A stretch of 50,498 bases of DNA, counting the filler, from an uncultured virus (IMG/VR IMGVR_UViG_2124908030_000007) (taxonomy: Duplodnaviria; Heunggongvirae; Uroviricota; Caudoviricetes). It is 8 parts of one record of this genome, joined end to end, with 100 filler letters (N's around TTAATTAATTAA, not from the genome) between each part and the next. Parts side by side here need not be neighbours in the genome. Positions count along the whole stretch, not along the records: positions 10,619 to 33,364 come from IMGVR_UViG_2124908030_000007; 7 more parts are not named here. One strand, 5' to 3'. Numbering within the stretch: the stretch's first letter is position 1; every line of letters begins with the position of its first letter. The translations under genes were made by a program, and so were the position numbers. Shown here in pieces: positions 12,173 to 36,789 of the stretch. The notes under the pieces are model-generated. The model was given only the letters and a program-made list of their open reading frames with translations, was not told where the DNA came from and made no database searches.

Positions 12173-12204
12173 GAAAGAGAAAACGGACTACAACCACTTA
12201 ACTC

Positions 12205-12991: not shown

Positions 12992-12992
12992 A

Positions 12993-13277
12993 TTAGTTCT
13001 CAGTGATTACGAACCCAACTTCACGCGACGTTTCTCCATCTTCTGTGATAACCTCATACCCAACATAGTCAGAAGAATCAACATCAACTTCATCGAGTTT
13101 ATCTTCTGCTTCTTCATTGAGTATCTGTTCAAGTTCTTCTTCTGATTCAGCATTATACTCTGCTAAGTCAACTGTTTTGACAATCGCTCCAGAACCATCA
13201 TCAGTCACAGGAAATACGACTGGACCACTGGTTTCTGTCATATCAATTTCCATGAATAGCTGTCGTGCTTGTTTCAT
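12993..13277 (-). CDS. highly acidic hypothetical protein
   Basis: ORF after gap with own TTAAG promoter remnant. Confidence 0.7.
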   Translation of the reverse strand: MKQARQLFMEIDMTETSGPVVFPVTDDGSGAIVKTVDLAEYNAESEEELEQILNEEAEDKLDEVDVDSSDYVGYEVITEDGETSREVGFVITEN

Positions 13278-16891: not shown

Positions 16892-17182
16892 CTAGTCGTT
16901 TTGAATTATTAAATGGCCATGCCAGTGGTCAGGATACTGATCCATTGTCACGACCAAATCCCAATCATCGTACAAAAGATCAACTAGCTTTTCGGCAGCA
17001 CGTCGTTTGTTAGGTCCAATCTCTTTTTCGTGTGTCTTCGACAAGATGAACGGCGTTCTGGAAAGTGAGTTAGCGATGACGAAACGGGGAGTCTCAATGT
17101 GCCACTCCGTCAATTTTTCCATCTCACACAGGTCGCACGATGTGTGAACGTTAGTCCAACCTCTTTCGTATCGTTCCTTCAT
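16892..17182 (-). CDS. minimal HIT-family (histidine triad) hydrolase
   Basis: N-terminal CDLC and C-terminal DHWHGHLII (HxHxHxx). Confidence 0.65.
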   Translation of the reverse strand: MKERYERGWTNVHTSCDLCEMEKLTEWHIETPRFVIANSLSRTPFILSKTHEKEIGPNKRRAAEKLVDLLYDDWDLVVTMDQYPDHWHGHLIIQND

Positions 17183-17550
17183 GGAGCTATCTCCACGTAA
17201 ATTGGAACACTCTCGTTGAGAGCTTTGTCGATAGTGTCTCTCGTTCCGTTTGAGTGACCGTTCCAGATTGCTATCACAGCGTCACTCTCTTCGACAATAC
17301 GTTGATTACGATACTTGGCAGGATGACCGTTCGACCAGTCATCCCAATTAGCGTCGAGTACTTCAATGTCTAGATTGTTTTCTTTAGCAAATCGTTCTGC
17401 TAACGTGTCAACACCATCGGCACCTCCTGAAACGAGTGTTATACGCCACTTTTCTGGAGAAGAACTAGAAGTGAATGGTGAGTGTATAATTGTTTGTTTA
17501 ACAAGCTCGTATCGATTAATCGAACGACTGCCAACGACTCCCAACATCAT
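17179..17550 (-). CDS. YspA/DUF2493-like SLOG family protein
   Basis: VVGSR, VSGGADGVD, RNQRIV, WNGHSNGT. Confidence 0.88.
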   Translation of the reverse strand: MMLGVVGSRSINRYELVKQTIIHSPFTSSSSPEKWRITLVSGGADGVDTLAERFAKENNLDIEVLDANWDDWSNGHPAKYRNQRIVEESDAVIAIWNGHSNGTRDTIDKALNESVPIYVEIAP

Positions 17551-18194
17551 ACCATATCACCCGACGCTACTTCTTCAACAGTAAGATCAGGCCATTCTTT
17601 TAGGAGTTCATCTGCTGGATAGTAGATACCAATATCGTTCTCACGACGAGCGGCGCTCTTGTCAGCAGTGTGAAGAAGGCGCTCTGCTTTCGTCTCGGGA
17701 TTCGGACCTTCTCCCCATGGTCCCATGTGACGATGTACTAGTCGAACAACGTCATCAGACATTTCTCCGATGTTTTCGACAACATCTGCTGCGATAACAT
17801 CGTGATCTCTGACAGTATGATCATTCTGCTCGCTTGGCCAACCGTACTTCATCATGTCGTGAGTGAGGGCTGCTGCTTTGCCCTGTTCTTTCTGTTTGGG
17901 CGAAATCCACCCACCTTCAACCCATGACTCACTGATGTTACAATACTCCGCGAACACACGTTTAGTATGAATCCAGTTTCCGTGCTTACCAATCTCATCA
18001 GTAGAGTGATAATTCCCACTACTAGATGATGGTTCGGTCCAGAAATAATCAGGACAACCTCTCATAAAAGTCCTGATAACGCCTTCACGAACTTCAGCAT
18101 CGTAAATGGCATCAATTTCTGGTAGTCGGCGTAGCAACTCATCCTCTTCCCATAAAGAGTTTTTGACTCTATCAACAGTCTCCGATTTTTTCAT
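17547..18194 (-). CDS. HD-domain phosphohydrolase
   Basis: SSSGNYH, HTKRV, LTHDMMK, HMGPW, LHTAD. Confidence 0.88.
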   Translation of the reverse strand: MKKSETVDRVKNSLWEEDELLRRLPEIDAIYDAEVREGVIRTFMRGCPDYFWTEPSSSSGNYHSTDEIGKHGNWIHTKRVFAEYCNISESWVEGGWISPKQKEQGKAAALTHDMMKYGWPSEQNDHTVRDHDVIAADVVENIGEMSDDVVRLVHRHMGPWGEGPNPETKAERLLHTADKSAARRENDIGIYYPADELLKEWPDLTVEEVASGDMV

Positions 18195-18233
18195 GTACCG
18201 TAAATACTACGGCCAGAGATATAAATGTTTCGA

Positions 18234-18632
18234 CTACGACATTGACCGACGACCGCGTTCGAGTGCTTCATACGCCAAACGATCAGCATCCTCGTTATTA
18301 TCACGAGGCGTCCAGTTCAACTCCCACGAATCAAACTTGTTTAACAATCTGTGTGCCCCTCTTCGTCGCTGATACCAGCACTCATTCGTTCCATCAGGGA
18401 CACGCATTTTGTCTATCATTGGTCTACAATCACAGTAAACACTGACGGCTCCCTCACTTTCACGATTAGCATGTCGAAGGCCATCGAGTAAGGCGTAGTA
18501 CTCGGCCTCCATTGATGTGTGTTCATTTGTAACATACCGCGAGCCAGTCATTTCAGTACCGTCGTCGAGTATTATTTTCCAAGCAAAACCACAGACACCG
18601 CTCCCTTTAGCCGCGTCTGTATAAACCTTCAT
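18234..18632 (-). CDS. rnhA: ribonuclease HI
   Basis: YTDAA, EAEYYAL, YCDC, WTPRDNNEDADRLA. Confidence 0.9.
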   Translation of the reverse strand: MKVYTDAAKGSGVCGFAWKIILDDGTEMTGSRYVTNEHTSMEAEYYALLDGLRHANRESEGAVSVYCDCRPMIDKMRVPDGTNECWYQRRRGAHRLLNKFDSWELNWTPRDNNEDADRLAYEALERGRRSMS

Positions 18633-19328: not shown

Positions 19329-20144
19329 CTATAGTGAGAACGTCTCCATATCAGGCTCTTTTCGACCAACATCTTCCCATCGACGAAGGTACTCCCAAAA
19401 CGGTTTGTCAGGATGATAATGCTCTCTGTTCAAAAGCCACTCAACTTTTGACAAGAACATCATCTCTCGCTCTGTCAACTCAAACGTTTGTCCATTAATC
19501 TCGATAACATCGTCCGGTTCGAGGTTCGTATCTTTGTATCTGTCTAATTGTACAAGCTCATACGTCTTGTCTTTCTTGACAGCCGTTCCACCCTCTCGCT
19601 TATACGCTCCCTCGTCAGGATTGTTCTTATCAGCGTACATCTTCGCGTTCCAATCGATCAGATAGAAGCCATCAATCAACCAACCATTCTCGACAATCGT
19701 TATGTCATTGTGTTGCGTGAACGTTCGTTTCAGCGCGTTTACCAAGTCTCGACGGACCTGTGTCTCCATAATCTTGTGATGTAGATTGTGAATCTTCGAA
19801 CAGTTGTCATCGACCAAAGCCTCATACACACCACTCAACAAACGTTCAGTCTGCTTTGGCATTGTTTCAACAACACTGCCATCGACTGAGACAATGTACG
19901 AGTACTCGTCACCCGCCTGTGAAACAATTGTTTCCGGGTCTTCGGACAACACTAACGCCTCGTCCCCGGAGAAGAACGGCTGTAATCCTCCGTCAAATGG
20001 TAATTCGTCTTCTGGATCAAACAACAGAAGATTCTCGGGAGTCGCTCGACGGGTATCTGGCTCGCCCGAGTCCGAGAAGATTAAGAATTGTTCAATCTCT
20101 CCGTCCTGATTATACGATACGTCTGCTACCGTGTACTCACTCAT
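19329..20144 (-). CDS. GHKL-associated partner protein (copy 1)
   Basis: Directly downstream of GHKL ATPase; homologous by eye to 30722-31659. Confidence 0.8.
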   Translation of the reverse strand: MSEYTVADVSYNQDGEIEQFLIFSDSGEPDTRRATPENLLLFDPEDELPFDGGLQPFFSGDEALVLSEDPETIVSQAGDEYSYIVSVDGSVVETMPKQTERLLSGVYEALVDDNCSKIHNLHHKIMETQVRRDLVNALKRTFTQHNDITIVENGWLIDGFYLIDWNAKMYADKNNPDEGAYKREGGTAVKKDKTYELVQLDRYKDTNLEPDDVIEINGQTFELTEREMMFLSKVEWLLNREHYHPDKPFWEYLRRWEDVGRKEPDMETFSL

Positions 20145-20182
20145 ACGAGAGTATACGGTACGTCTCTATAAAAAGGTTTTGA

Positions 20183-21703
20183 CTAGTTCATCTGATTGAC
20201 AACATGTTCCTTCGTATGAGGGTTCATGTCTTCCAAGTCTTCAAGACTATGAGCAGACTGCCTGTACTCTTGAATAGCCTGATCAAACCTTTGAGTAAAC
20301 TTGTGAGACAGATACTTCCAGAAAACCTTGTTATCCTGTAACGTCTCACGATCGGTGGCTGGCTTCGGGAGACACAAGTCTCCCTGCTCCGAGTCTATGT
20401 TGAAGTCTTCCACCTCGTCTCGTGGGATGAATCTTTCTGCTCGCCCTTCCGGAAGACTGTTCCACTCACTTCGATCGACGACAACACGACCCTTATTTGG
20501 ACCAGCGATCACTTCTTTCGGACCAAACTCGTCAACTTCTGACGAATCAGTGACATAGTTGTGAAGAGGCAACGGTTCGTCAGAATCGAGAACCTCTTCG
20601 CTGACGTGATACACCACCTCTCCATCAACTCTACCCTTCTGAGCAGTAATGTCCTTGTTTGAGAGCAAGTGTTCAGCGATGTACTCGTCTCTCGCGTTGA
20701 TAAGCATCTGGTCATACTCGGACCTACTGACAGGAGTAAGGCCCTTGTTTCCGTTGCTCGACACAACAATAGCGCCAGACTCGTCAGTAATACGAGTGTC
20801 AAAGGGATACGGACATGTCATAGTCGTAGTGCTATGACTCTTCTCAATAGGCATCGACTGAAGAAGAACTCGGTCGTTAGCATCAGGGGACATGTATGCC
20901 TCGAAGAAGCCCGGTTCCGAGATTCGGTCCATGTAGTTGTCACGTTCATACGACTCGTACAATCGCTTTCCTCCCCAATCCTCATTGAAGACTTCTTTTC
21001 CGTTTTCGTCCAGTTCTCGGTAGAGAACAGGGACACGCATCCACTGAGAGTACTTCTCAACAGCAGACCGAACATCCATGTCACTGTTCTTTTGATCAAG
21101 CTTGAACTTCGTCCCATATTCTTCGTCACCGAGTTGCCCCATGATAGGCTCGACTCCGGCGAGCGAGACGAGATACGCGGCATTGTCAGAAGACAGGCGA
21201 CTGTTTGACAGCATGATCATCGTGGAATTGTTCACACCAATGAACTTCAAGAACGACAGGACACCGATTCCGAAAGAACCAGTCATGTCACTCATGTCAC
21301 GAGTAGCGGAGCGTCCAATATGACTGAACACCTCTCGAACCTCTTTGGCATTCATACCGATACCATTGTCCTGAATAATGACCTTCTGCTTGGACTGATC
21401 ATATTCAACAACGATACGAGGCTCATAGTTGTCTTCAACAATCATGTCATCGTATGGAACGAGAGAACTGTCTTTGTTGAACTTGTCTACCTTCAAGCAA
21501 GCAGTCTCTGCGTTGGCAAGATACTCTCGAAGCGTCTCTTCCCATGAATCGTACAAGTCATCGGCAAACTGTCTGATTAATGGACGAAGGTCAGCAGTCC
21601 ATTCTTTTGGTTCATCTCCGAACGGGTGTTCCTCACCCGAAGCACCGACATTCCTATGCTCCACATTGTGTTCGCCCTGCGTGTAGTAAACTTCCTCACT
21701 CAT
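20183..21703 (-). CDS. Hsp90/rIIA-like GHKL ATPase (copy 1)
   Basis: REYLANA, IQDNGIGM, GSFGIG, YGTKF; Hsp90-like catalytic loop LPKPATDRETLQ. Confidence 0.88.
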   Translation of the reverse strand: MSEEVYYTQGEHNVEHRNVGASGEEHPFGDEPKEWTADLRPLIRQFADDLYDSWEETLREYLANAETACLKVDKFNKDSSLVPYDDMIVEDNYEPRIVVEYDQSKQKVIIQDNGIGMNAKEVREVFSHIGRSATRDMSDMTGSFGIGVLSFLKFIGVNNSTMIMLSNSRLSSDNAAYLVSLAGVEPIMGQLGDEEYGTKFKLDQKNSDMDVRSAVEKYSQWMRVPVLYRELDENGKEVFNEDWGGKRLYESYERDNYMDRISEPGFFEAYMSPDANDRVLLQSMPIEKSHSTTTMTCPYPFDTRITDESGAIVVSSNGNKGLTPVSRSEYDQMLINARDEYIAEHLLSNKDITAQKGRVDGEVVYHVSEEVLDSDEPLPLHNYVTDSSEVDEFGPKEVIAGPNKGRVVVDRSEWNSLPEGRAERFIPRDEVEDFNIDSEQGDLCLPKPATDRETLQDNKVFWKYLSHKFTQRFDQAIQEYRQSAHSLEDLEDMNPHTKEHVVNQMN

Positions 21704-21774
21704 TTTGTTTCACAATAACGGATACGGGTTACTTCAATATAAACCTTTCCCAAGTAAAGTAGAACACAATATCT

Positions 21775-21819
21775 AAAATTCCCCCGAAAGGCAGTCTCTC
21801 CTCCTCTCCTACTCCTTGT
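21775..21819 (-). ncRNA. candidate ~45-nt purine-rich small RNA
   Basis: Dedicated promoter CCGAAACGCTTAAGT (21842-21856); no ATG; GGAG repeats, UUCG hairpin, U-tract. Confidence 0.45.
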
Positions 21820-21866
21820 TTAACCGCCACGGTCGCTATACACTTAAGCGTTTCGGTTCGCCCAAT

Positions 21867-22523
21867 TCAGACGTTCCAACGGTCTCCGACTACATCCCCA
21901 TCGTACCAGTCCTTTCCTTTCCGTTGTACCTGCCCTGAGATGTCCTGTGGGATGTTGTTAGAGGGGTTTGCTTCCTCGATGACCTCACAGTCATACGTCC
22001 GACAAAGGCTCTCAAAAGCGTCGTGAGAGTCCTTCTTGCCCTTCTCAGGACGAGGTTGTTCGGCCTTCTCTTGAACGTTCCATTCGACCCAACTGTCAAC
22101 AGGAACCATCGCTTGACCGGCGCTCCACGTCACGTCAATTTCAGGATGTTCTGGCACCCACATAATCATCTTCGAGCTATCAAGTTCGTCAGGTTCTGCC
22201 GGGATACGGTCAGGGTCGTGGCCACCGGGGTCAGGAACCTCGTCAAACCGCTGTGGAGTCAGCCTGAAGTGATTGCGTTCTATTTCCCCTCGACGCTTTT
22301 CTTCAGGATTCATGTTCATTTCAAGCTGGTCAATGTCGTCCCATGGAGCCATGACACCAACAGTCTCAATGACTAGCACAGGATCTCCGTCGTCAGTCTT
22401 CCACCAGCATGAGAACTGCTCGTTGCCTTCATACTCAAGCCTTGCTCGTTTCTCGATTGATTCTCGGAACTCGTCACTAAGTCTGTACCTCTTTCCGTTA
22501 AGGTCTAGTGTGTACTCACTCAT
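21867..22523 (-). CDS. hypothetical protein
   Basis: 218-aa acidic ORF, ATGA overlap. Confidence 0.8.
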   Translation of the reverse strand: MSEYTLDLNGKRYRLSDEFRESIEKRARLEYEGNEQFSCWWKTDDGDPVLVIETVGVMAPWDDIDQLEMNMNPEEKRRGEIERNHFRLTPQRFDEVPDPGGHDPDRIPAEPDELDSSKMIMWVPEHPEIDVTWSAGQAMVPVDSWVEWNVQEKAEQPRPEKGKKDSHDAFESLCRTYDCEVIEEANPSNNIPQDISGQVQRKGKDWYDGDVVGDRWNV

Positions 22524-22843
22524 TCCATGAAGTCCTCCGGAATATTGTCATCAGCCAATTCGTCAAAACGTTCGACTGTCTTTTCTCGAAGTTCTCCCTT
22601 CGACTCGGCAATGATGCCAACATCACGAAGTTCGCTGTTTGGAAGTTCGTTTACTGCGGCAATGAACATCTGGTCTCCTTCATCGACCAGTTCCGAACCC
22701 CATTGTACGTGGTCTCCGTACTCTCCATTAAGTGCTTTCTTTTTCTGAACACGTCGGTAGATCGGCCTACCGACAAGGTATGCTACAGTCGCTACTCCTG
22801 CTCCGAACGCTGCCAAAGTCAGTGGTTCTACCATATCGTACAA
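22520..22843 (-). CDS. membrane-anchored protein (start probably 22834)
   Basis: N-terminal TM helix followed by basic stretch. Confidence 0.75.
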   Translation of the reverse strand: MYDMVEPLTLAAFGAGVATVAYLVGRPIYRRVQKKKALNGEYGDHVQWGSELVDEGDQMFIAAVNELPNSELRDVGIIAESKGELREKTVERFDELADDNIPEDFME

Positions 22844-22874
22844 TACGTGGTCTACATATAAAAGACTTTTGGTA

Positions 22875-23168
22875 TCAGCTAAATGATGAAAGACCAGATT
22901 GAGAGTTGTCTATTCCTTCACGTCTGTCCACTTCTCGTATTTCTATTTCGAAAACACCGTCTTCTGATGGATGAATTTCCCACACTTCTAGTTGTACGTC
23001 CAACTCTGCTTTCGCTTTCTTGATTTGTGTTTTTATCCAATCCCACCCGATTGATTCGTCAAACTCGACGTAGTAATGCCAACGATTATTCTTTGCTTCT
23101 GTCATGGAGTCGTTGGCATTCGTTCGATTAACTAGCTTTGTTCGAATAAATTCTTTACTGTTTGTCAT
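22875..23168 (-). CDS. hypothetical protein
   Basis: ATGA overlap with upstream gene. Confidence 0.75.
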   Translation of the reverse strand: MTNSKEFIRTKLVNRTNANDSMTEAKNNRWHYYVEFDESIGWDWIKTQIKKAKAELDVQLEVWEIHPSEDGVFEIEIREVDRREGIDNSQSGLSSFS

Positions 23169-23515
23169 TGTAATGTACCCGGAACTTGAAGAATTACTTC
23201 TTCTGCTTCTGTGACCTCTTCAAGACGTTGTGAGACTTCAGCCGGAACGTCAACGTCTACAGCCTCGGGGTCTTCCCATGTCACGTCTTTTGTCTTTTTC
23301 CAATGACGGTCAGTAATCCGTGTAGTGTCTCTCGTCCGTTCCTCGACAAAGCTCTGGAACATCCACTTGTCCCATTCTGGAGCATGACTAAACGTGTACA
23401 CACGCTTCACGAGTTGGTTTGCATCTTCCGAGCGTGTCTCTATAGTGAAAGAAACATTTGCTGTTCCTCTAACTGACTCGTCTAATTCTTGCTGGTCAGT
23501 TAATTCTGTTAACAT
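23165..23515 (-). CDS. hypothetical protein
   Basis: Acidic ORF with promoter. Confidence 0.75.
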   Translation of the reverse strand: MLTELTDQQELDESVRGTANVSFTIETRSEDANQLVKRVYTFSHAPEWDKWMFQSFVEERTRDTTRITDRHWKKTKDVTWEDPEAVDVDVPAEVSQRLEEVTEAEEVILQVPGTLQ

Positions 23516-23547
23516 AGTGTGTCATTTGATCTTCTAGAATAAAAATG

Positions 23548-23781
23548 TTACGTCTCGTCATGCGTGTGCGTACAAATGTATATGAATCCGGTAATGTCGC
23601 GGATTTTCTTTTGATCAGTTTTTGGAAATGTATTTAGTGGTGGCTCACTTCTGTACTGAATTATACGATCTTTTGATCTTTTACATTGCCATATTCCTCT
23701 ATGCTTTGTTTTAAATGAAACTATTACACTCCTGTCTGTTGGGAGAGTGCTATAACCTTCGACACGGTGAAATTCTACCAT
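23548..23781 (-). CDS. small basic hypothetical protein
   Basis: ATG at 23781 after leftward promoter; AT-rich; Lys/Arg-rich. Confidence 0.55.
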   Translation of the reverse strand: MVEFHRVEGYSTLPTDRSVIVSFKTKHRGIWQCKRSKDRIIQYRSEPPLNTFPKTDQKKIRDITGFIYICTHTHDET

Positions 23782-23860
23782 ACATAGTATTCGTATCGAC
23801 AGAGTAAAAACTTTTCTACTCGAAAGATTTATATCGGTACGAGACGTATTTCCGATAACA
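23782..23860. promoter_or_regulatory. back-to-back divergent promoters at the transcription switch point
   Basis: Leftward GAAAAGTTTTTACT and rightward CGAAAGATTTATAT; gene orientation flips here. Confidence 0.75.
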
Positions 23861-24163
23861 ATGAAAACCGTTTCAGGAGTTAACTCACATGTATTCAAAC
23901 GAAATGTGATAGATGTTGCTAGAGAAAACAATTGGAAAACTCTTGGTTCCAAAAATAAAATGTTTGAAAAATTAGGATATGAAGTATACTTTGAGAACGC
24001 TAAAACTGTTGGACTAGTTATAAGAGATCCCGAAACACAACTAAAGAGTGTTGTATACTCATATCACGCAAATACAATTGGAGCAAAATACTTTTCGATT
24101 GTACAACATATATTCCGTAATGCTGAACAAATAGTTTCAAAGAGACAAGATTATGAAAAGTAG
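23861..24163 (+). CDS. hypothetical protein, tandem paralog A
   Basis: Shares EN.WK, F.K.GYEV, G.KYF.I.Q...NAE.IVS with next ORF. Confidence 0.8.
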   Translation: MKTVSGVNSHVFKRNVIDVARENNWKTLGSKNKMFEKLGYEVYFENAKTVGLVIRDPETQLKSVVYSYHANTIGAKYFSIVQHIFRNAEQIVSKRQDYEK

Positions 24164-24473
24164 TACGTTAACTGGGGAGAATATGTTTCGTGAGAGAGTG
24201 GATTCTATAGCAGAAGAGAATGGATGGAAGAAAATAGCTTTGACAGAGTTCTCTAAACCCGGATATGAAGTAAAAATATCACGAAATGGTAATTTTGAAC
24301 TTGCTACAGTTCACCCCGAATTTGGGGGACGGGAAGTTCCATATTATTATTACTTTGAAGGCTCTGTTGGACCAAAGTATTTTGCTATTATACAGTACGT
24401 ACTCTGTAATGCTGAGGAAATAGTTTCGGATTATTACGATAGCGAAAAACTTAAGTGTGAGTCAGAACAATAG
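24153..24473 (+). CDS. hypothetical protein, tandem paralog B
   Basis: See paralog A. Confidence 0.8.
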   Translation: MKSSTLTGENMFRERVDSIAEENGWKKIALTEFSKPGYEVKISRNGNFELATVHPEFGGREVPYYYYFEGSVGPKYFAIIQYVLCNAEEIVSDYYDSEKLKCESEQ

Positions 24474-24482
24474 ACTAGTACA

Positions 24483-24845
24483 ATGAGCGCAGACATAATC
24501 GCAGTCGAAGTACAGGAGACTAAGTACGATGAAGTTGTTGTCCTCGAAACCCCATATGATGCGAAGGACTTTATTGATGCTCTTCCGTGGAACACTCTTG
24601 AGGAAGAAGAGGAAGAACACGGAGACCTTCGAACGAAGTTAGAGAACCGTGACGTGGCAGATGCTGCCATTCAAGCAGCCGAAGACTTCAACTTCTCAGA
24701 CACGTTCTCTGCTCACCAGTCGTGGGATCCGAACGCTCTCGGACGTGACAACGGAGCATGGACTATCGACCGAGATGCTCTCGGAGAAGCACTTGAGTTC
24801 TTCGAGTTTTGTGGATTCGAGGTGGAGAATAACACCAACGTGTAA
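24483..24845 (+). CDS. hypothetical protein (possibly HARP-like)
   Basis: ETPYDAKDFIDALPW...SWDP...AWTID pattern. Confidence 0.7.
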   Translation: MSADIIAVEVQETKYDEVVVLETPYDAKDFIDALPWNTLEEEEEEHGDLRTKLENRDVADAAIQAAEDFNFSDTFSAHQSWDPNALGRDNGAWTIDRDALGEALEFFEFCGFEVENNTNV

Positions 24846-25007
24846 ATGGTTAGTAAAAAAGAAGAGCAAGATATAAAAGAACTGCTTCAAAACATACTCG
24901 AAGTTAAGCGTTCAGGTGGTAGCGAAAGAGAAATTAAGAAAGCTGTCCAAGAACTGTACGCCTACCTCATACAGAGTGGCGTCGTCGATCCAGAAGAGAA
25001 TGAGTAA
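24846..25007 (+). CDS. 53-aa helical protein
   Basis: Manual translation MVSKKEEQDIKELLQ...VDPEENE. Confidence 0.65.
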   Translation: MVSKKEEQDIKELLQNILEVKRSGGSEREIKKAVQELYAYLIQSGVVDPEENE

Positions 25008-26024
25008 ATTCACACTATCAGAGACTGGAAACTTTGAAGAAGAAAAAGAAGAGCGAGTCTTCAGACGACTGTCAAGTCAGANNNNNNNNNNNNNNNNNNN
25101 NNNNNNNNNNNNNNNNNNNNNNNNNNNNNNNNNNNNNNNNNNNNNNNNNNNNNNNNNNNNNNNNNNNNNNNNNNNNNNNNNNNNNNNNNNNNNNNNNNNN
25201 NNNNNNNNNNNNNNNNNNNNNNNNNNNNNNNNNNNNNNNNNNNNNNNNNNNNNNNNNNNNNNNNNNNNNNNNNNNNNNNNNNNNNNNNNNNNNNNNNNNN
25301 NNNNNNNNNNNNNNNNNNNNNNNNNNNNNNNNNNNNNNNNNNNNNNNNNNNNNNNNNNNNNNNNNNNNNNNNNNNNNNNNNNNNNNNNNNNNNNNNNNNN
25401 NNNNNNNNNNNNNNNNNNNNNNNNNNNNNNNNNNNNNNNNNNNNNNNNNNNNNNNNNNNNNNNNNNNNNNNNNNNNNNNNNNNNNNNNNNNNNNNNNNNN
25501 NNNNNNNNNNNNNNNNNNNNNNNNNNNNNNNNNNNNNNNNNNNNNNNNNNNNNNNNNNNNNNNNNNNNNNNNNNNNNNNNNNNNNNNNNNNNNNNNNNNN
25601 NNNNNNNNNNNNNNNNNNNNNNNNNNNNNNNNNNNNNNNNNNNNNNNNNNNNNNNNNNNNNNNNNNNNNNNNNNNNNNNNNNNNNNNNNNNNNNNNNNNN
25701 NNNNNNNNNNNNNNNNNNNNNNNNNNNNNNNNNNNNNNNNNNNNNNNNNNNNNNNNNNNNNNNNNNNNNNNNNNNNNNNNNNNNNNNNNNNNNNNNNNNN
25801 NNNNNNNNNNNNNNNNNNNNNNNNNNNNNNNNNNNNNNNNNNNNNNNNNNNNNNNNNNNNNNNNNNNNNNNNNNNNNNNNNNNNNNNNNNNNNNNNNNNN
25901 NNNNNNNNNNNNNNNNNNNNNNNNNNNNNNNNNNNNNNNNNNNNNNNNNNNNNNNNNNNNNNNNNNNNNNNNNNNNNNNNNNNNNNNNNNNNNNNNNNNN
26001 NNNNNNNNNNNNNNNNNNNNNNNN

Positions 26025-26179
26025 AGACAGGTGATGATTGGATAGCATATAACTATCTTGGCACCCAAGACTTTGTGGATAGTGTGCTAGAAGACGGCAT
26101 GTGGGATGACATTTCGGAGATGCCATTTCAGGCATCATCCTTACATGCGCCAAAAAGTCTGTACGAACCAAAAGATTAA
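26025..26179 (+). CDS. hypothetical protein, C-terminal fragment
   Basis: Acidic frame emerging from gap. Confidence 0.5.
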
Positions 26180-26205
26180 TAAGCGTTTGTACCATACACT
26201 TATGT

Positions 26206-26598
26206 ATGAGTACAAACACAGAGCAGGTTGAATTGTCTTCAATTGATTGGGACAGTAATTTTTATGACATCACCGAGAATGCGTCAGTTGATTTATCATC
26301 AGATTCACCAATAGACAAGCAAGAAATTATTCGGACAGTAGCGAAGTTATTTGAAAAGTCAACTGACTCTACACACTACGTTTATTGTCTTTCTGTTGAT
26401 GAAGGATCACGATGGTATGTAGGAGAGACTGCCAACTTGTACGACCGATTTTGTACACACTTGCGAACACGAGATGTTACTAACATCGAGTTTGTGAAGC
26501 CTGCTTCTGACAAAGAACATAGTCGAGAGCGAGAACGAGAGTTGTCATATCAAGTTGCTATTGACAAGAATACAACGGAGGTGTACGGAGGACGATGA
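26206..26598 (+). CDS. GIY-YIG-like nuclease domain protein
   Basis: YVYCL...WYVGET..LYDRF..H...ERE...VYGG. Confidence 0.7.
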   Translation: MSTNTEQVELSSIDWDSNFYDITENASVDLSSDSPIDKQEIIRTVAKLFEKSTDSTHYVYCLSVDEGSRWYVGETANLYDRFCTHLRTRDVTNIEFVKPASDKEHSRERERELSYQVAIDKNTTEVYGGR

Positions 26599-27044
26599 GT
26601 GCCACTCAACTAATCGGTGGAATTTACATCAGCGATATTACGTTTGTTGAAGAAGGAGACACAAGTATGTTTGATTCTGTTATTGGTGTCTGTCAAGATG
26701 ACAGGTCTGATAACGTCTCGTGTTCATACGATCATTTCAATATGTCAGACGGTCCTGTAGAGAATGAAGAAAACGGTGGACACAACCCCGGAGAATTTGG
26801 ATACGATATTTTCTCTGATGCTGTTGACCGTGCTATTGCTCGTCGTGTACTTCTTGACACAATCCTTATACATTGTCATGCTGGACGGAGTAGGAGTGCC
26901 GCTGTAGCGATAACGACTATGGCAGTAATGAACGGTATGACGTGGGAAGAAGCACTAGAATACGCTAAGGAACAACGAGAGTGTATAGATATTTCTCCAG
27001 AACTTGTCGAGCTAGGAAAAGAATATGTAAGCAGAGTAGAATAA
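26595..27044 (+). CDS. dual-specificity (CX5R) phosphatase
   Basis: IHCHAGRSRS active-site loop. Confidence 0.9.
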   Translation: MSATQLIGGIYISDITFVEEGDTSMFDSVIGVCQDDRSDNVSCSYDHFNMSDGPVENEENGGHNPGEFGYDIFSDAVDRAIARRVLLDTILIHCHAGRSRSAAVAITTMAVMNGMTWEEALEYAKEQRECIDISPELVELGKEYVSRVE

Positions 27045-27478
27045 TGTCAAAACAATACGATGAGTTGGCAGATGCTTTGGCCGAATTGAGTACACACTAC
27101 GAGGCAGAGGGTCATGGAAGAAAGGCACGACAATACCAGCTAGCAGCATCAGAACTTCGTTACACTGAACACATGCCTCCTGACCCGACTGACTTGCCTG
27201 ATGTGTCACGTACTGTTCGAGACCATATCGCAGAATGGAGAGCATTTAAAGAAATTGACAAACTTACAGAATTACGCGAAAAAAGACCATATTTGTCAGA
27301 ATTAACTCGTGCTAAGTCTGTCGGGCCAAAGACTGCCGAGAAGATATACAACGAGACAGGAGCAGAGACATTAGAAGATTTAGAAGAGATCCTCGAATCG
27401 GGAGAGATAACAGATGTACATGGTATTGGTAGCAAGACGGCTACTACTATTCGGCGTAGTGTCGCTCAACTCGACTAA
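27044..27478 (+). CDS. PolX N-terminal (8-kDa plus HhH) domain protein without polymerase core
   Basis: LADALAEL...KARQYQLAA...SVGPKTAEKIY...VHGIGSKTA. Confidence 0.8.
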   Translation: MSKQYDELADALAELSTHYEAEGHGRKARQYQLAASELRYTEHMPPDPTDLPDVSRTVRDHIAEWRAFKEIDKLTELREKRPYLSELTRAKSVGPKTAEKIYNETGAETLEDLEEILESGEITDVHGIGSKTATTIRRSVAQLD

Positions 27479-27520
27479 CCGTAATATTTAAGTACTCGAA
27501 TTACTTAGTGTACTGTAACG

Positions 27521-27736
27521 ATGACAGAAGTAATCCATGTTCGCTTCCCCGGAAATTGGGAGGCTTTGTACGTTGATGGTGAGAGAGTAGCACAGAACCA
27601 CTCAGTTGATGTTGCTGATGTATTAAATCACATTGAGGATGAAACAATTACCGAGGCACGGAGTGAATATAACGCTGTCCAACTACACAAAGAGTTTGGG
27701 GCTGTTGCTCCAGAAAATTATAACGAATTACCGTAG
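27521..27736 (+). CDS. hypothetical protein
   Basis: Own promoter; WEALYVDGE. Confidence 0.75.
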   Translation: MTEVIHVRFPGNWEALYVDGERVAQNHSVDVADVLNHIEDETITEARSEYNAVQLHKEFGAVAPENYNELP

Positions 27737-27777
27737 TCGAAACCCTTATTACTATAGCAGTAGAATAGTGAGTTACA

Positions 27778-30667
27778 ATGAGTCAATCCGGTTCGGACAA
27801 ACTTGAGCAGTATCGTAGTACCGCTGGCGCTGAGGTAAAAATCGCTGATGTTGCGAGTGAAGATCACGCTCTACAGAGTCTCGTCGATGATGGAGGCACT
27901 CAAGAGCGTATCTATGATGCTCAACAGTCGGGCGCACGATTTGTTAACTTCTACGACGACCCTGCTGCCTCAATTCGAGAGTATCTTTCCAACGCCGAGA
28001 CAGCGTGTATTCGTCGGTGTATTCAGGAACTAAAGCAGTCTGGCTTTGACGACAGCGAGATTCCTGATGAAACCAGCGACGTGATCGACATGGCAAAAGA
28101 AGAGACGGGTTACTCTCCTGTCATTGAGGTCACGTATAATCGTAAGGACGACGAGACTCGTCTTGTCATCGAAGACAATGGCATCGGTATCTCGTCAGAA
28201 GAGTACGAGGTCGTTCAACACGTTGGCTACTCCATGTCTCACCAAGACGGAGACCGTCTCGGGAACTTCGGTATTGGGTGGATGAGTGGATTCCTGCTCA
28301 CCTCAGTTAACGGGATGTTCAAGATGACTACTAAGTCGTTCCTTACTGACGAGACGTACTCTACTGCCGAGTATGTCGCCAACTTCGAGATGCTGGACAA
28401 TTCGCGTGAAAGCTATGGCACCATCTTCGAGTTCCCCTCCTTCGGCGAGGCAGCGAAAGAAATTGACATCCCCGAAAAAGTTTCGGAATATGCTGAAGGA
28501 ATGATCATTCCTGTCCTGTATCGAGACTTCGACCATNNNNNNNNNNNNNNNNNNNNNNNNNNNNNNNNNNNNNNNNNNNNNNNNNNNNNNNNNNNNNNNN
28601 NNNNNNNNNNNNNNNNNNNNNNNNNNNNNNNNNNNNNNNNNNNNNNNNNNNNNNNNNNNNNNNNNNNNNNNNNNNNNNNNNNNNNNNNNNNNNNNNNNNN
28701 NNNNNNNNNNNNNNNNNNNNNNNNNNNNNNNNNNNNNNNNNNNNNNNNNNNNNNNNNNNNNNNNNNNNNNNNNNNNNNNNNNNNNNNNNNNNNNNNNNNN
28801 NNNNNNNNNNNNNNNNNNNNNNNNNNNNNNNNNNNNNNNNNNNNNNNNNNNNNNNNNNNNNNNNNNNNNNNNNNNNNNNNNNNNNNNNNNNNNNNNNNNN
28901 NNNNNNNNNNNNNNNNNNNNNNNNNNNNNNNNNNNNNNNNNNNNNNNNNNNNNNNNNNNNNNNNNNNNNNNNNNNNNNNNNNNNNNNNNNNNNNNNNNNN
29001 NNNNNNNNNNTTCGATGCCTATTCGTCGGAATGATGATAAACATATCACCAACCATAGCTTCAATGCTAAGTGGAAGTGGGACTTCCGTGGGAAGAAAGA
29101 AAACGGTCCTATTGTGAGTTGTCCGAGTGACCCGTCTCTTGTTGGACTTGTCCCGACCGAGAACATCAAGTACGACCAGATGATGGAGGAACTACAGGAA
29201 GATTGTATCCCTCTTTCAGAAGTCCCTGATGACGCTATCTCGATGCCTGAGCCAGCGTCGAGCCGAGACTCATACAAGTCTGGCAACGACGACTTCTGGA
29301 GATACGTGAGTGACAAACTCCAAGAAGCGTGGGCAGACATTGCCAGAGAGCGGTTCAAAGGCTTGGACTCGTGGGAAACGTTCCTCAACATGTCTCACGA
29401 AGAAAAGAAGTCTCTACTCCGAGCGTATTCAGAGTTTGGCCCGAGTTACAAAGTCAGCGACCCACAGACGATTGTTGAAACGATTGAAGACAACGTTGGC
29501 GTCACCGTTGACGGTAGTGCCTGTGTCCGGATTCATGAGAGTCAAAGTAAGGTCAATGTAGTTCATCGAGGAAGTAAAACTGCTGAAACGAAGTCTGCCA
29601 CTAAAAGGAAGAGAATTTGGGAAATCATCGAAGAAGCGCCTGACGGTGTTTACATGGGTGTTTCGATCAGCCAAAAGAAAGCAGACATCGCTTGGGGTCT
29701 TGGTGACACTCACGTTGTCCGACTTGAAGGAACGGGTCAGTACAGCGAACTTGCTGATACGTGGGATTGGAACAAGCTCAAGAATCTTCCTCACCGGGAT
29801 CTCGAAGAAAAGCTTCCAGAACTAGACGATGATGTTATCGAGATGTACGATACTAAAAGTACGTCTGGTGGAAGCAGTAACAGTAGTTCTTCTTCCAGTT
29901 CCAGTAGTGATACTGGCGGCGATGGGAAGAATCCTGAAAAGTATCGTATGAAAGTTCGTGTCGGTGCTTACGCGAGAAAGTACTATAGTGTTCACTCAGC
30001 AAAGTATATTCACGACACTCTTGATAATGGTGACAAATTGAACGCTGGTCATTACAGTTGTCAGTATCTTATATTGTCTGATGATGATACGTATGCTCGG
30101 ACAGTTGGAAAGAAAGCAAAGAAGTCGTTCGGTGTGGCTGGAGTTTCTGTCCCTGATTACGTGTACGACTACTTACTGACTGCTGATAATGTGTATGAGA
30201 CGTATGAAGAGATTAAACAAGACCATGCTGGAACTGAGTTGACGTTCCTTAATGGTGATACCGAGAACATTAATAACACGTCAAACTCTGATGTGATTAT
30301 CTCTACGTCTAGTGAAACGAAAGACTTCTTTGAAGACAAGCCTGAAGAACTTCTTAAAGTTATGGGATTCGATTCAGACAGGTTTGATCGTTTCGCTATC
30401 ATTGATGGTAAAGAGTTACAGGATGCGTGGAACATTAGCATTGATGCTACAGTCATCAAAATGTCCGACTCTAATCGATTCGGAGACTTTAATGACTATA
30501 CGTACAAGAGTTGTAGGTTCAACGATGTGAAGTATGATTACCTACTCTCTGACTTTGACAAAGACTCAGAAGAGTATGAGGCCATGTTCGGTCGTCGGCG
30601 TGGGACGCCTGATCCCGAGACCAAAGAAGTCCTTCTCGACATTGCCGAGCGAGCAGACCTGATCTAA
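27778..30667 (+). CDS. Hsp90/rIIA-like GHKL ATPase (copy 2, ~960 aa, internal N gap)
   Basis: REYLSNA, EDNGIGI, GNFGIG, YGTIF before the gap; SMPI, YDQM, PEPASSRD after it match copy 1. Confidence 0.85.
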
Positions 30668-30721
30668 TTACTTCGCCTTTCGTAACTCTTAAGTAGTATC
30701 GCCCCGTTTGTTGAAATAGAA

Positions 30722-31659
30722 ATGAGTGACCATACTCTTTATGAGTTGATGAACGGAGAAATTGTTCCCGATATGGGCGGCGAGAACGCTTGGCTCGTCC
30801 GTTTCGGTGAAGGAGAATACGACACGGTTAACAAGAGTGGAAAGAACACTCTCTTGTTGAAGCGTGAATTTGGACTGACGAGTGTCGTCTCTCATGGTGG
30901 CATTCGAGTCGCCTTTGACTTGGAAGAAGATAATATCTTCCTTACAGAAGAAGAGTCTGGAGACGATGTTCGTGTCCCGTCTGAGAAGCATGAGAACGTT
31001 CTGTGGGCAGTTTACGACGAAGACGGTCCACGCCTTCGAGACTTGTTCGACGAGTTGTACGAGCCTACTGTGCGAGAAGGCTTGCTCGACCAGTTGATGC
31101 CTCGATTCCGTAACGACGTTGACGAGATCGAGAAGATGGAACTTGGTTGGATTGTCAACTCCGACATTCTCGTTTCATGGACTGGCTCTAATCATCCCCT
31201 GAACGTTGACTCCACGTATGTTGTCAACTCAGGCGAGGCTGTCGAAGCAGACGAAGACAAAGAAGCACGAGAGATTGACTTCTACATGCCTGACAATCGG
31301 GACGTGTATCTCCCGAACGGGACTCAAACGACTCTCACGGACGTTGAGGTCCGTTTCCTGACGACTGTTGGCCTTCTCGTTGAAACGTACAACATGACTT
31401 GTACGACGATTGCTTGTCCGAGCTATCGAGAACAGTAGCGTAGTGCTTNNNNNNNNNNNNNNNNNNNNGTACAACGAGTACGACCATACTGGTGTCCACG
31501 AGCTATACGTCGTCGAGACGAGTCGAAGATGCTCCGATTGATGTGTTCGAGGATGCCAGCAACGACAGTCCGAGAAAGTGGCGAGAGATCCAGAACACGT
31601 CCGAACGGGCACCCATTCCTGAAGAGATTCGTCAGGATCTGACCGAGCGGTACGAGTAG
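30722..31659 (+). CDS. GHKL-associated partner protein (copy 2; low-quality 3' part)
   Basis: VREGLL..L..RF..ELGWIV..LVSW and LTDVEVRFL match copy 1; acidic frame resumes to TAG at 31659. Confidence 0.75.
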
Positions 31660-31698
31660 GACAAAACCTTTTTATATTGGTAGTACGTAAGTGCTACC

Positions 31699-31923
31699 AT
31701 GGGAGAACTACCAATCGAAGTCGGTTACAAAGTAGAGTTACTAGAAAACGCTAGAGTCGAAGAAGAAGGCGGCGTCACTGGAGACGTTGTATTCGAAGAC
31801 CGTGTAGAGCAATACGTTCCTAAGACTGGTCTACTACGTTTCGAAGAGAGTGAGATAGGGTTGGCTGAGTTTATCAACCTTCGTGAAGAGACTGATCTCA
31901 TGGAGTTGACGGTAGAACAATGA
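31699..31923 (+). CDS. hypothetical protein
   Basis: Promoter plus acidic ORF. Confidence 0.7.
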   Translation: MGELPIEVGYKVELLENARVEEEGGVTGDVVFEDRVEQYVPKTGLLRFEESEIGLAEFINLREETDLMELTVEQ

Positions 31924-32111
31924 TGAACATTATTATACTTACGTTGTCATTTTGTTTTATATATCTTCTTGGTGGACTGATTGTAGAGGATATGTTTAAC
32001 AAGTTCTCACAAGCAGAGTATGATTTCAAGCCTAAACTTTATTTCATTCTTCTTTGGCCAATAGCAATTATGCTTGCTATTGTTTTACTGCTAAATGGTG
32101 ATTTTAGATGA
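31920..32111 (+). CDS. small membrane protein
   Basis: Two TM helices, LWP motif. Confidence 0.7.
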   Translation: MMNIIILTLSFCFIYLLGGLIVEDMFNKFSQAEYDFKPKLYFILLWPIAIMLAIVLLLNGDFR

Positions 32112-32314
32112 GTCACCGAGCAGGACTCGCTCAAGCTCACCACCCGAAAGATCAAGAGTTTGAAGATGGGTACACAGAAGACGACGAAGGAACGTCGAAT
32201 TACGCTTGTAAGATCTGTAAGTCAGGTGTGTGGGTAGACAACGAGCAGCGTCATGAGACGACAAGCTGGTGTGATTCGTGTGGACAGTTACAGCGACTCG
32301 AAAGAGTTAAGTAA
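32108..32314 (+). CDS. zinc-finger microprotein
   Basis: CKIC...CDSCG. Confidence 0.75.
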   Translation: MSHRAGLAQAHHPKDQEFEDGYTEDDEGTSNYACKICKSGVWVDNEQRHETTSWCDSCGQLQRLERVK

Positions 32315-32338
32315 GTAGTAGTCGTACTGTATGATAGA

Positions 32339-32545
32339 ATGTCAGAACGAGTTACCATAATTAACAGAAGTCAAGATGGTGTCAAACACTATGAACAATT
32401 CGAGTCCATACCGGACGTTGGTGACAAACTACGCCTGTATGGATGTGTGTTTGTTGTTGAGTCAGTAAACACAGTATTCAAAAGACCATCACCCGGTAAG
32501 ACTGTTACCGAACAGACAGAAGTTACAGTCAAATATAGACACTAA
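32339..32545 (+). CDS. hypothetical protein
   Basis: Promoter plus ORF. Confidence 0.7.
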   Translation: MSERVTIINRSQDGVKHYEQFESIPDVGDKLRLYGCVFVVESVNTVFKRPSPGKTVTEQTEVTVKYRH

Positions 32546-32834: not shown

Positions 32835-33364
32835 ATGAGAAAATACCCGAAACTCAAGTACCCGGATCACAGAAAGTCAAACGGCCTCTTCGCTTCAGGA
32901 GAGTTTATCGTTCAAGAGAAAGTCGATGGTGCCAACTTTCGGTTTACTCTTGAGCGAAACCTTGACGAAGAGTATCACACAGAAGATAGAGAGCTTGTCT
33001 TTGGTTCGCGTAACGTAGCCTACAAAAACCAGAAAGACGAGAGCAAGCAGTTCGCCGAGGTCATGGAGTACCTCAGAGAAGTTGTTGATACTTTTACCAT
33101 TAGGTACATGGAAGAGAATCGGTTTAATGGTGGACTGGTCTTCTTTGGAGAAGCCATGAAACCTCACACATTAGAATACGATTGGGACGAAACACCTCCG
33201 TTTGTTGGCTTCGATGTTTGGTCAATTGGATTGAACCGTTGGCTTAACTACACAGAGTGGTCGTACTGTTTTGATATGTTGGACCTTCAAAAGTCTCCTG
33301 TCATCGATACTGTTGACGTGGAAGATAGGGATACGATTGAATACGAAGTTCCTGAAAGTGAGTT
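32835..33364 (+). CDS. ATP-dependent RNA ligase (Rnl2-like), 3' truncated
   Basis: Motif I EKVDGAN, FGSR, FFGE, GFDV. Confidence 0.88.
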
Positions 33365-33476
33365 NNNNNNNNNNNNNNNNNNNNNNNNNNNNNNNNNNNN
33401 NNNNNNNNTTAATTAATTAANNNNNNNNNNNNNNNNNNNNNNNNNNNNNNNNNNNNNNNNNNNNAGAACGTAAAGT

Positions 33477-35141: not shown

Positions 35142-36789
35142 ATGCCCGAATTGAGACCGTGAACAATAAGAAAACGTCGAAGAGTTGGCAGCCCGTCGTT
35201 CAGAGTATCAAAAGAGACGATCATCGACATAGTGAGCACTATTCATCGATGATACAAGAGTCACTCTGTCTGCTCACAGAGCAGGGAAGTCTCTCATTCT
35301 GTACACAGTCAGCCGAGTACTGTCTGACATTAAGAATGAGAAAACGTTCTCGACAACGCCGTTGAACACACTCATCGACCAGATCGAGAATGACGACCTT
35401 CTAGAAGAAGCAGTCACTCTTAAGGGAAAGAACAATTACAACTGTGTTCATCCCATGGACCACGGTGCGCCAGTCGATGATGCTATCTGTCAAAGAATGG
35501 CTGGTTTTGACTGTGAGTTTAAAGAACGGTATCCAGAAGACGGTGGCTGTCCGTACTACGGGAAGAAAGAACTCGCAACAACGAAGGACACGGTTGTCAC
35601 CAACCTGTCATACCTTATGACAAACTCGATGATTCCGAGTGAGTACGGCTTCGAGCCACGTACCCTGCTAGAAATTGACGAAGTTCAGAACGTCGAGAAC
35701 TTCGCTCTACAATTCATCGGTTTTACAATTGACGAGTCCAGCATCCCGATAAACTTTGGTCGTCTACCGATGATTCCTGAAGAAGACTCAACCATGGAAG
35801 ATATGGTAGAGTGGCTTCAAGAACTGTCTCGCTTGCTTACTGAAAGAGCAAATGAGTTGTCGTCTAAGTCACGACTGACAGATAGAGAAAACAATCATTT
35901 AAAGAAAATAAAGCGTATTCGTCATCGTGTGATCAATTTCCTTCACGATCAGGCAGAGGGAAAACATTGGACGAAAACACACGACAACGGAACAGTCGAG
36001 CTAGAGCCTGTGTTCATCGGGCGATTCATTGACAAGTTCCTATGGAGTCAGCTGACAAGTACGTTCTGTCGAGCGCGACCATTCCCAAAGGTAGCTTCCT
36101 CGAAGAAATCGGTCTCGAACCTGACAACATAAAGCGTATCGAGGTGCGTCTACGTTCCCCAAAGAGCGGCGACTGTCATCACAGACTACGTTGGCAAGAT
36201 GACACAAGGAGAGCGACGTAAGACGTTCCCGAAACTAGTAGACAAGATTGAAGAGATAGCAGACTATCACAATGGAGAGAACGGCTTCATCCATTGTAAC
36301 TCGTATGAGATCGCTCAAAATATATACGACAACCTCTCTGTGTACGTAAAACGTCGGACAATGTTACAAGACCAGAAGAACCGAGAAGAATCACTTGAAA
36401 AGTGGATGGACTCAAACAAACAGATATTCTTGTCTGTTGCTCAAGATGAGGGTATCTCTCTCGACGGAGACAAAGCACGCTGGCAAGTTGTCGCCAAAGC
36501 AAGTTATCCGTTTGTTGGAGACGAGAGAGTTTCTTATCGCCTCAACGAGCTTGGTGACTGGAACTGGTACAATGGATCTGCCGTAATCAATTTACAGCAG
36601 GCGGCAGGGCGTGGTATGAGATCAAAAGACGACTGGTGTACGACCTACCTTATTGACAGTTCATTCAAAAGCCTTCTTCAACGGAATCGTAACTTGTTCG
36701 AAGACTGGTTCCTCGATGCCGTAAACTGTGACCCTGCTGATGAAGTGACTGCCAAAGTCCCTGAAAGCAAGTTCACGTTCTCGACGTAG
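35142..36789 (+). CDS. DinG/XPD-like SF2 helicase with Fe-S Cys cluster (several apparent frameshifts)
   Basis: AGKS Walker A remnant, LKGKNNYNC plus three Cys, IDEVQ, EGISL, QAAGRGMRSKDD. Confidence 0.85.

Follow-up and report, generated by a model that had tools for sequence, protein, structure and literature searches.

Two paralogous copies of a halovirus-specific, multi-part gene system built around an Hsp90-derived ATPase

Introduction

A 50,498-nt stretch of DNA from an uncultured virus (IMGVR_UViG_2124908030_000007), hereafter called the window, encodes two modules in which a GHKL ATPase is followed by a smaller partner protein. Here we report that these modules are paralogous copies of a halovirus-specific, multi-part system around an Hsp90-derived ATPase. 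Copy 1 consists of a short ATPase, a partner and a third protein, Z, encoded as separate genes. Copy 2, with a long ATPase and a second partner, is by sequence comparison a fused form of what copy 1 encodes in pieces. We tentatively interpret the system as a virus-borne, Hsp90-like protein-remodeling machine with dedicated cofactors, a reading to which we give just under even weight. A first-pass annotation of the window had proposed an archaeal-virus system consisting of a duplicated ATPase-plus-partner module, likened to the rIIA/rIIB pair of phage T4 and serving either as an anti-defense system or as a dedicated chaperone with its client. Two sets, paralogous and ancient, are borne out by the analysis below and the likeness to rIIA/rIIB is not; between the two functions, the analysis leads us to favor a dedicated chaperone plus cofactor. 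That annotation had missed three further conserved parts, termed Y, X and Z, as well as the relation of copy 2 to the pieces of copy 1.

Results

Both ATPases are Hsp90-derived, an identity on which sequence matches to the Protein Data Bank (PDB), two structure searches and an HtpG-like arginine loop agree. When the short ATPase was searched against PDB sequences, all 50 chains matched at E<=1 were Hsp90-family N-domains, headed by Escherichia coli HtpG (E 3e-11, residues 12-229). In profile comparison with hhalign, residues 3-223 of E. coli HtpG aligned with the short-form profile at a probability of 98.5% (E 2.6e-15) and with the long-form profile at 97.0%. The top NCBIfam models were likewise HtpG (E 5.6e-15) and 'HSP90 family', matched over the N-domain only. 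An AlphaFold2 model of the short ATPase, built from 41 sequences (predicted local distance difference test score, pLDDT, 80.9; predicted template modeling score 0.71), has the fold of the N-domain plus first middle domain of GRP94 and TRAP1. All of the Foldseek matches listed for this model belonged to the Hsp90 family (E ~5e-13, 320-390 columns). VIA, a structure search independent of Foldseek, placed GRP94 first with a Z score of 21.4 (314 residues aligned, model residues 17-484), along with TRAP1 at Z 20.3 (root-mean-square deviation 3.8, 282 residues aligned).

Hsp90 uses an arginine of its middle domain catalytically, whereas DNA-acting GHL enzymes use a lysine. The loop with this residue reads DLPLNVSREILQD in HtpG (335-337); its putative counterparts read DLCLPKPATDRETLQD in the short form (451-453) and MPEPASSRDSYKS in the long form. 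Its context, DL.L...R-E-x-L-Q-D, is HtpG-like and its arginine is invariant in both paralogue families, so that the Hsp90-like catalytic loop of the first-pass annotation stands; every one of the shared motifs quoted there is also present in the ATPases. No variation was seen at the E, N, DxGxG, GxxGxG, GT and Arg positions among 41 homologues of the short form and 36 of the long, R452 and the ATP-site residues being constant in all 41 short-form sequences. Common to the viral proteins and the Hsp90 family are the ATP-binding domain with all of its motifs, the fold of the N-domain and first middle domain, and the HtpG-like arginine loop.

Beyond this core the viral proteins depart from Hsp90. 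From its model we read the short protein as an Hsp90-type N-domain followed by the first middle (transducer-like) subdomain, after which it ends. At 506 residues it lacks a detectable second middle subdomain and C-terminal dimerization domain. Copy 1 had been described as ending after the middle domain; it is indeed truncated, although the end falls after the first middle subdomain and not after the whole Hsp90 middle domain. The long form bears an apparently unrelated region of ~420 residues, corresponding to Y, in place of the missing Hsp90 parts, and the dedicated partner, Z and X genes are unlike known co-chaperones. When a genome collection was scanned with the short form, 80 loci were retained from 343 relatives; each was a bacterial HtpG N-domain, and neither an archaeal genome nor a provirus was among them. 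As a control, the Pfam HSP90 model PF00183 matched 4 of 14 control genomes, all four of them bacteria. Hsp90 is one of the most intensively studied chaperones, yet it is not known from the great majority of archaea.

The two-domain ATPase module, and presumably an ATP-driven dimer clamp with it, is also found in the GHL ATPases MutL, Topo VI-B, GyrB/ParE, MORC and SMCHD1. The main rival to an Hsp90-like machine is a nucleic-acid-directed clamp working in the manner of MutL, Topo VI-B or MORC in replication, repair or RNA repair, with the partner and Z as nucleic-acid-binding subunits. We regard it as unlikely, though deserving of real weight. The model does align over both N-domain and transducer with ParE (Z 17.5, the best match outside the Hsp90 family), topo II (16), SMCHD1 (15.6), MORC2 (15.4), Topo VI-B (15.2) and MutL (14.7), yet Hsp90-family structures score 3-4 Z units above these DNA enzymes. 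Sequence likeness to the GHL enzymes is confined to the ATP box, with a weak NCBIfam match to Topo VI-B (E 2e-4) and one to MutL (E 0.09), whereas the whole N-domain finds a sequence match only in Hsp90. Moreover, the viral ATPases carry the Hsp90-style arginine, in its HtpG-like loop context, where GHL enzymes have lysine. A zinc-ribbon-like Cys/His pattern in Z, weak Tudor, SH3 or PUR-like rows for the first domain of the partner, and RNase H-like, HD, HhH, RtcB, RNA ligase and GIY-YIG neighbors all speak for a nucleic-acid clamp. Against it, no Toprim, nuclease or winged-helix family was detected in the partner, Y or Z, and the proteins of both sets are all strongly acidic (isoelectric points of 4.2-4.8), although this is usual for halophiles.

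The two ATPases are clearly related to each other. The short ATPase (GHKL1) matches the N part of the long ATPase (GHKL2) with an E of 7e-24 at 33% identity, and its C part with an E of 2e-5. Compared by hhalign, the short-form profile (41 homologues) and the long-form profile (36 homologues) align at a probability of 100% (E 3e-62), with residues 13-498 of the short form corresponding to 23-440 of the long. Both proteins match phrog_23723 (E 7e-42 to 5e-75). The two partners, proposed earlier to be homologous, are so (E 8e-10, 26% identity over ~250 residues), and both match phrog_21685 (E ~4e-55). The whole set appears to have been duplicated as a unit; HGTV-1-like viruses carry both sets, and HSTV-2-like viruses carry one.

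Association of ATPase and partner extends well beyond the window. A metagenome scan with the partner profile yielded 34 loci, and a short ATPase lay upstream on the same strand in all 18 that could be tested, the remaining 16 having less than 1,700 nt of upstream DNA. Each of eight loci with a long ATPase (the window, HGTV-1, L043, L044, L045, HSTV-2, L127 and L128) had a partner homologue within 1.2 kb, located downstream in seven and upstream and divergent in L045, where both sets are on one strand. Partner homologues elsewhere are thus linked to a GHKL gene for both forms. Among 50,697 phage records, 10 halovirus records from 7 viruses contain the ATPase, and the HSTV-2 partner matched precisely these 10. 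Four further records matched by the ATPase were short fragments labeled as bacterial phage; they look like HtpG and matched over residues 26-227 only, at 25-28% identity.

Linkage extends to additional parts. In relatives of copy 1, 300-2,100 nt separate the short ATPase from the partner, and this gap holds two recurrent genes, Y and X. Half of the 18 loci have Y (~500 residues; 224 in HGTV-1 gp171) as a gene of its own next to the short ATPase; the other nine, like the window, lack it. An hhalign comparison (probability 99.9%, E 2.6e-31) showed Y to be homologous to the C-terminal extension of the long ATPase over its full length, Y residues 13-490 equating to long-form residues 446-859. The same homology is evident from PHROG positions 540-890 and from tblastn to window positions 29447-30352, and a hidden Markov model of Y matches 29534-30337. 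X (~90 residues) occurs in 21 of the 34 loci and not in the window. Z homologues follow the partner in 22 of the 34, the other 12 having at most ~1,300 nt of downstream DNA; they were also found in HGTV-1, L045, HSTV-2 (gp90), L127 and L128. Proteins of the partner 2 type elsewhere are 332-348 residues long and end in a domain homologous to Z (hhalign probability 98.3%, E 1.2e-14), in which the four cysteines are replaced and the histidines and lysine are kept. An intermediate form is seen in the HSTV-2-like set, where the ATPase is fused to Y and is followed by the partner and then by a larger Z protein.

The tail of the long ATPase thus has its homologue in Y, and that of partner 2 has its homologue in Z. 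The two sets, with two genes in the long version and three to five in the short one, are therefore collinear fusion/fission forms of one system. A physical complex between the parts is likely, given that fusion has occurred twice independently, that the set was duplicated in its entirety and that linkage spans two virus families. It is very improbable, in our judgment, that the genes adjoin by shared descent only, with the partner and Z having functions of their own. Most loci do come from one virus lineage, and the intergenic gaps, 38 to 2,100 nt in length, contain mobile genes, a LAGLIDADG endonuclease among them. However, linkage is kept between HGTV-1-like (144 kb) and HSTV-2-like (~70 kb) viruses that share little else, and it outlasts rearrangement in L045. 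Accidental adjacency would also sit poorly with fusions (ATPase-Y and partner-Z) that join neighbors and with a set duplicated as a whole.

An AlphaFold2 model of partner 1 (31 sequences, pLDDT 80.9) shows three small alpha/beta domains with a disordered loop at 178-208. This fold had no convincing PDB relative: the best Foldseek match had an E of 0.086, and the best VIA match among 48,161 chains scored Z 5.6, under the usual noise level. In a viral fold library the partner matched only three halovirus proteins. No Pfam, NCBIfam or PADLOC family and no catalytic-looking motif was found in it. A search of 1.84 billion representative proteins with the partner profile gave 129 clusters, and in a broad alignment a single glycine is invariant, which argues for an adaptor rather than an enzyme. 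Among 47 longer partner relatives, Pfam detected no real domain, one of them having weak zinc-ribbon matches, and a locus search with the distant partners P0272 and P0303 gave no viral loci. The Y profile had no matches among PDB sequences at E<=10, and neither Hsp90 nor any chain in the PDB resembles the Y region of the long form in sequence. The ESM Atlas was uninformative for both the long-form tail (Atlas model pLDDT 0.36; all template modeling scores below 0.32) and a Y protein (all feature scores at or below 0.83). Z probably has a metal-binding, Cys/His-rich core, to judge by 15 positions invariant in 19 Z sequences: F49, C51, C54, L56, H58, H60, K64, H65, F71, C88, H89, C90, A109, A116 and P117. 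The only four cysteines of Z1 are the invariant ones. Pfam gave weak zinc-ribbon hints only for Z (E 0.015 or worse), and no CHORD or other family.

We also weighed a counter-defense pair of the rIIA/rIIB kind, acting against host abortive infection or exclusion, with the two copies aimed at two host systems, and consider it improbable. Its appeal lies in gene order, a virus-encoded GHKL protein followed by a smaller one of ~300 residues, and in the duplication of accessory genes that evolve fast, as is typical of conflict systems. According to Iyer et al. 2021 (PMC7824862), rIIA combines a GHKL domain at its N-terminus with a C-terminal domain that varies, and represents a poorly understood counter-defense system. 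The viral ATPase, partner and Z do not have the look of fast-diversifying proteins; they are well conserved, with orthologues 43-66% identical and an invariant active site. Two rIIA profiles, phrog_612 and phrog_2979, reached the ATP-binding box, matching only short-form residues 109-147 around DNGIG (E 1e-4 and 4e-3), a span of ~40 residues. No rIIA profile matched the long form at E<=0.1. A single-sequence hhalign comparison of T4 rIIA with the short-form profile, a weak test, found nothing, the ATP box included. For neither partner was an rIIB family found in Pfam at E<=1 (Phage_T4_rIIB) or in PHROGs at E<=0.1; hhalign of T4 rIIB with the partner profile gave a probability of 1.4%, and the RIIB model in the viral fold library ranked 42nd against the partner (E 0.1, template modeling score 0.17). 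PADLOC returned MzaB only (E 1.6e-4), a match confined to 70 ATP-box residues in the long form, and no match for the other four pieces.

Homology to rIIA therefore does not extend past the ATP-binding box, the partner is not rIIB-like in any of these comparisons, and membership of an rIIA/rIIB system is not supported. The GHKL domain of T4 rIIA itself leans weakly toward Hsp90, since all seven of its weak PDB matches were Hsp90 N-domains (E 0.06-0.3), and a very deep kinship between T4 rIIA and the viral ATPases is possible on this account. Although the T4 record names rIIA and rIIB 'membrane integrity protector', a hydropathy scan found no membrane segment in either, nor in the proteins of the viral sets, which are acidic and soluble; the membrane trait thus separates nothing.

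Gene layout in the two copies is summarized in Table 1. Intergenic gaps are short, 38 nt from ATPase 1 to partner 1 and 54 nt from ATPase 2 to partner 2. The first-pass coordinates of GHKL1 were confirmed. Those of copy 2 required revision: 27778-30667, given as one gene, has a length that is not a multiple of 3 and is split by the run of N with its frame change, and partner 2, taken to reach 31659, meets a TAG stop that leaves 238 residues, reading on requiring more frame changes. The copies do lie in divergent gene blocks, as described, but they are 6 kb apart with the strand switch at 23952-24153, and do not flank one promoter. A TATA-like element upstream of the short ATPase may, given the usual layout of archaeal promoters, mark a promoter of this gene's own.

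Table 1. Positions in the window of the two ATPase sets and of surrounding features.
Feature	Position	Strand	Remarks
Short Hsp90-like ATPase (GHKL1), 506 aa	20183-21703	-	Read as Hsp90-type N-domain and first middle (transducer-like) domain with R452
Partner 1, 271 aa	19329-20144	-	phrog_21685, E 4e-55; three small alpha/beta domains in the model
Z1, 134 aa	18870-19274	-	After partner 1; Cys/His-rich, 'APIP' tail
TATA-like element TTTATATT	21736-21743	-	In the 163-nt gap upstream of the short ATPase; read from sequence
Long Hsp90-like ATPase, N part, 253 codons	27778-28536	+	phrog_23723, E 5e-71; ATP-site motifs
Run of 474 N inside the long ATPase	28537-29010		Frames differ on either side
Long ATPase, C part	29012-30667	+	phrog_23723, E 5e-75; rest of middle domain with PASSRDSY loop, then Y-like extension of ~420 residues
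Partner 2 core, 238 aa	30722-31438	+	phrog_21685, E 3.5e-54; TAG stop at 31436-31438
Partner 2 remnant or continuation, Z-like C-terminal domain	31470-31659	+	Out of frame in the record
218-aa protein	21867-22523	-	Directly upstream of the short ATPase; no Pfam family
SLOG/YspA-like, HD-domain and RNase H-like genes	17179-18632	-	Come after Z1
Open reading frames with DEAD_2 and Helicase_C_2 domains	35362-36132 and 36199-36789	+	Adjoining
RNA-repair-like complement	10869-14912; 32835-33416; 40270-41421	-; +; +	AAA_28 kinase-like, RlaP, RtcB, RNA ligase, and poly(A) polymerase/CCA-adding-like with HD domain
RtcB gene, 639 codons	12993-14912	-	Contains a run of N, 13309-13785

Copy 2 is interrupted in both of its genes, the only frame-split genes among about a dozen shared with the HGTV-1 pieces compared. 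HGTV-1 has ~58 residues where the long ATPase holds 158 codons of N, the run being ~300 nt longer than the matching stretch of HGTV-1 gp203; the N part of the ATPase is 66% identical to gp203. The run could conceal an intron or some other insertion, or the gene could truly be split. The database protein of this contig for the long ATPase comprises only the 550-residue C part (P0190). Another contig splits the long ATPase elsewhere, its protein P0211 (478 residues) beginning just before the arginine loop. For partner 2, the core is 56% identical to residues 4-219 of HGTV-1 gp207 (338 residues), which aligns by tblastn to the window in three different frames. A contig from run X1 (4,510 nt, depth 6) contains two additional bases, inserted singly after 31510 and 31522, each beside an identical letter. 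With these two bases 31470-31659 becomes a single frame of 63 residues that ends exactly at 31659 and is 76% identical to gp207 residues 276-338. Because the X1 contig is free of one of the frame breaks of copy 2, either the record has local indel errors or it represents a strain with a decaying copy 2. In a second X1 contig (1,205 nt, depth 5.5) both flanks match and 145 other letters replace the 143 at 31502-31644; co-occurring strains therefore differ in the Z-like domain of partner 2. Runs X2 and X4 contributed no sequence to 31469-32400.

We read the window as coming from an HGTV-1-like haloarchaeal tailed virus. HGTV-1 (Halogranum tailed virus 1, 143,855 bp) was its best match in the phage record collection, at the protein level only, with no nucleotide-level match found in that collection. 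The short ATPase is 48.6% identical to its orthologue HGTV-1 gp172. Gene content (ribonucleotide reductase, RtcB, RNA ligase, terminase and similar), a hypersaline-lake metagenome run that contains 82% of the region's sampled words, and the acidic proteins also underlie this reading. None of the runs listed as containing the region was an RNA run. The window contains 22 runs of N, of which two touch the ATPase sets (28537-29010 and 31449-31468). Four runs are of exactly 20 N, and a pattern of 44 N, 12 bases and 44 N occurs at 5001, 10519, 33365, 38913, 43957, 45024 and 48746.

Several neighboring genes were also noted. The 218-residue protein encoded upstream of the short ATPase has counterparts in six loci (L001, L019, L022, L028, L029 and L045) and may be a further member of the set. 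An RNase H-like gene downstream of Z recurs in 13 related loci. The adjoining DEAD_2 and Helicase_C_2 reading frames have the look of one XPD-type helicase, either split or with a broken frame in the record. RtcB of HGTV-1 has 484 residues, and the excess of ~155 codons in the window gene is wholly covered by 477 N that keep the frame, as would be expected of an intein-like insertion. A gene for a dual-specificity phosphatase is present near the ATPase sets in both the window (26595-27044) and HGTV-1 (L001). Liu et al. 2021 (PMC8651126) report a dual-specificity phosphatase and an Hsp90-like gene in HGTV-1; they also ascribe the phosphatase to the genus Mincapvirus, and an Hsp90-like gene to HSTV-2, which belongs to that genus. 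No phosphatase homologue was found in the locus piece of HSTV-2 that was compared.

Discussion

The Hsp90 annotation has been published before, whereas the multi-part architecture apparently has not. HGTV-1 gp172 and HSTV-2 gp93 are annotated as HSP90/HtpG-like, and Liu et al. 2021 (PMC8651126) list an Hsp90 chaperone for both HGTV-1 and HSTV-2. A 2025 preprint (10.1101/2025.02.15.638363) also places Hsp90 labels on its genome maps of new halovirus families. In the portions of these accounts that touch on the locus, a name is given to the ATPase alone; 'hypothetical protein' is the label of its second paralogue and of the partner, Y, X and Z genes, and fusion or fission is not mentioned. The orthologue of the long form, HGTV-1 gp203, is itself annotated as hypothetical, and HSTV-2 gp93 is a long-form relative. 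Within a literature search that left the original HGTV-1 paper and supplements outside its scope, we found no description of the second paralogue, partner, Y, X, Z or the fusion pattern.

As a virus-borne remodeling machine, the system would work as follows. All the residues that an Hsp90-like ATP cycle calls for are present in the ATPase. The ATPase would act as an ATP-driven clamp like Hsp90, with ATP closing the two N-domains and the middle-domain arginine completing the active site. Y, the partner and Z would be dedicated cofactors for dimer contact, regulation and substrate recognition, standing in for the missing C-terminal part of Hsp90 and for cellular co-chaperones. Acting in hosts that lack an Hsp90, the machine would remodel proteins of the virus or the host or assist their maturation, and its two copies would serve different substrates. 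A more specific version, which we hold to be possible but more doubtful than the general one, is that of a minimal Hsp90 reduced to N-domain and middle domain. Dimerization, regulation and client choice would have passed to Y, a three-domain adaptor and a Cys/His-rich metal-binding Z, the parts having been repeatedly fused and split and present in two specialized copies.

A number of observations weigh against a protein-remodeling role. The NCBIfam HtpG match scores 54.9 bits against a cut-off of 371, so the family level is not reached; the Pfam model PF00183 has no match at E<=1 in any piece, and there is no Hsp90 sequence match past the N-domain. No Hsp90 C-terminal dimerization domain is detectable in the short form. 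Its layout of N-domain plus transducer is common to the DNA-acting GHL ATPases (VIA Z 14-17.5), and the neighboring genes concern nucleic acids and RNA repair, not protein folding. Pfam and PDB searches revealed no likeness of Y, the partner or Z to a known co-chaperone or a solved fold. Finally, copy 2 is frame-broken in this record.

The pattern of fusion and fission nonetheless provides strong comparative evidence that four proteins work together. If the remodeling interpretation is true, these viruses would possess an Hsp90 system with an entirely new set of co-chaperones, in a domain of life without Hsp90. For Hsp90 biology, such a minimal natural version would show which parts are indispensable and could reveal new regulation of the ATPase. 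For archaeal virology, several conserved 'hypothetical proteins' of HGTV-1-like and HSTV-2-like viruses become one testable system, for which cultured viruses and hosts exist.

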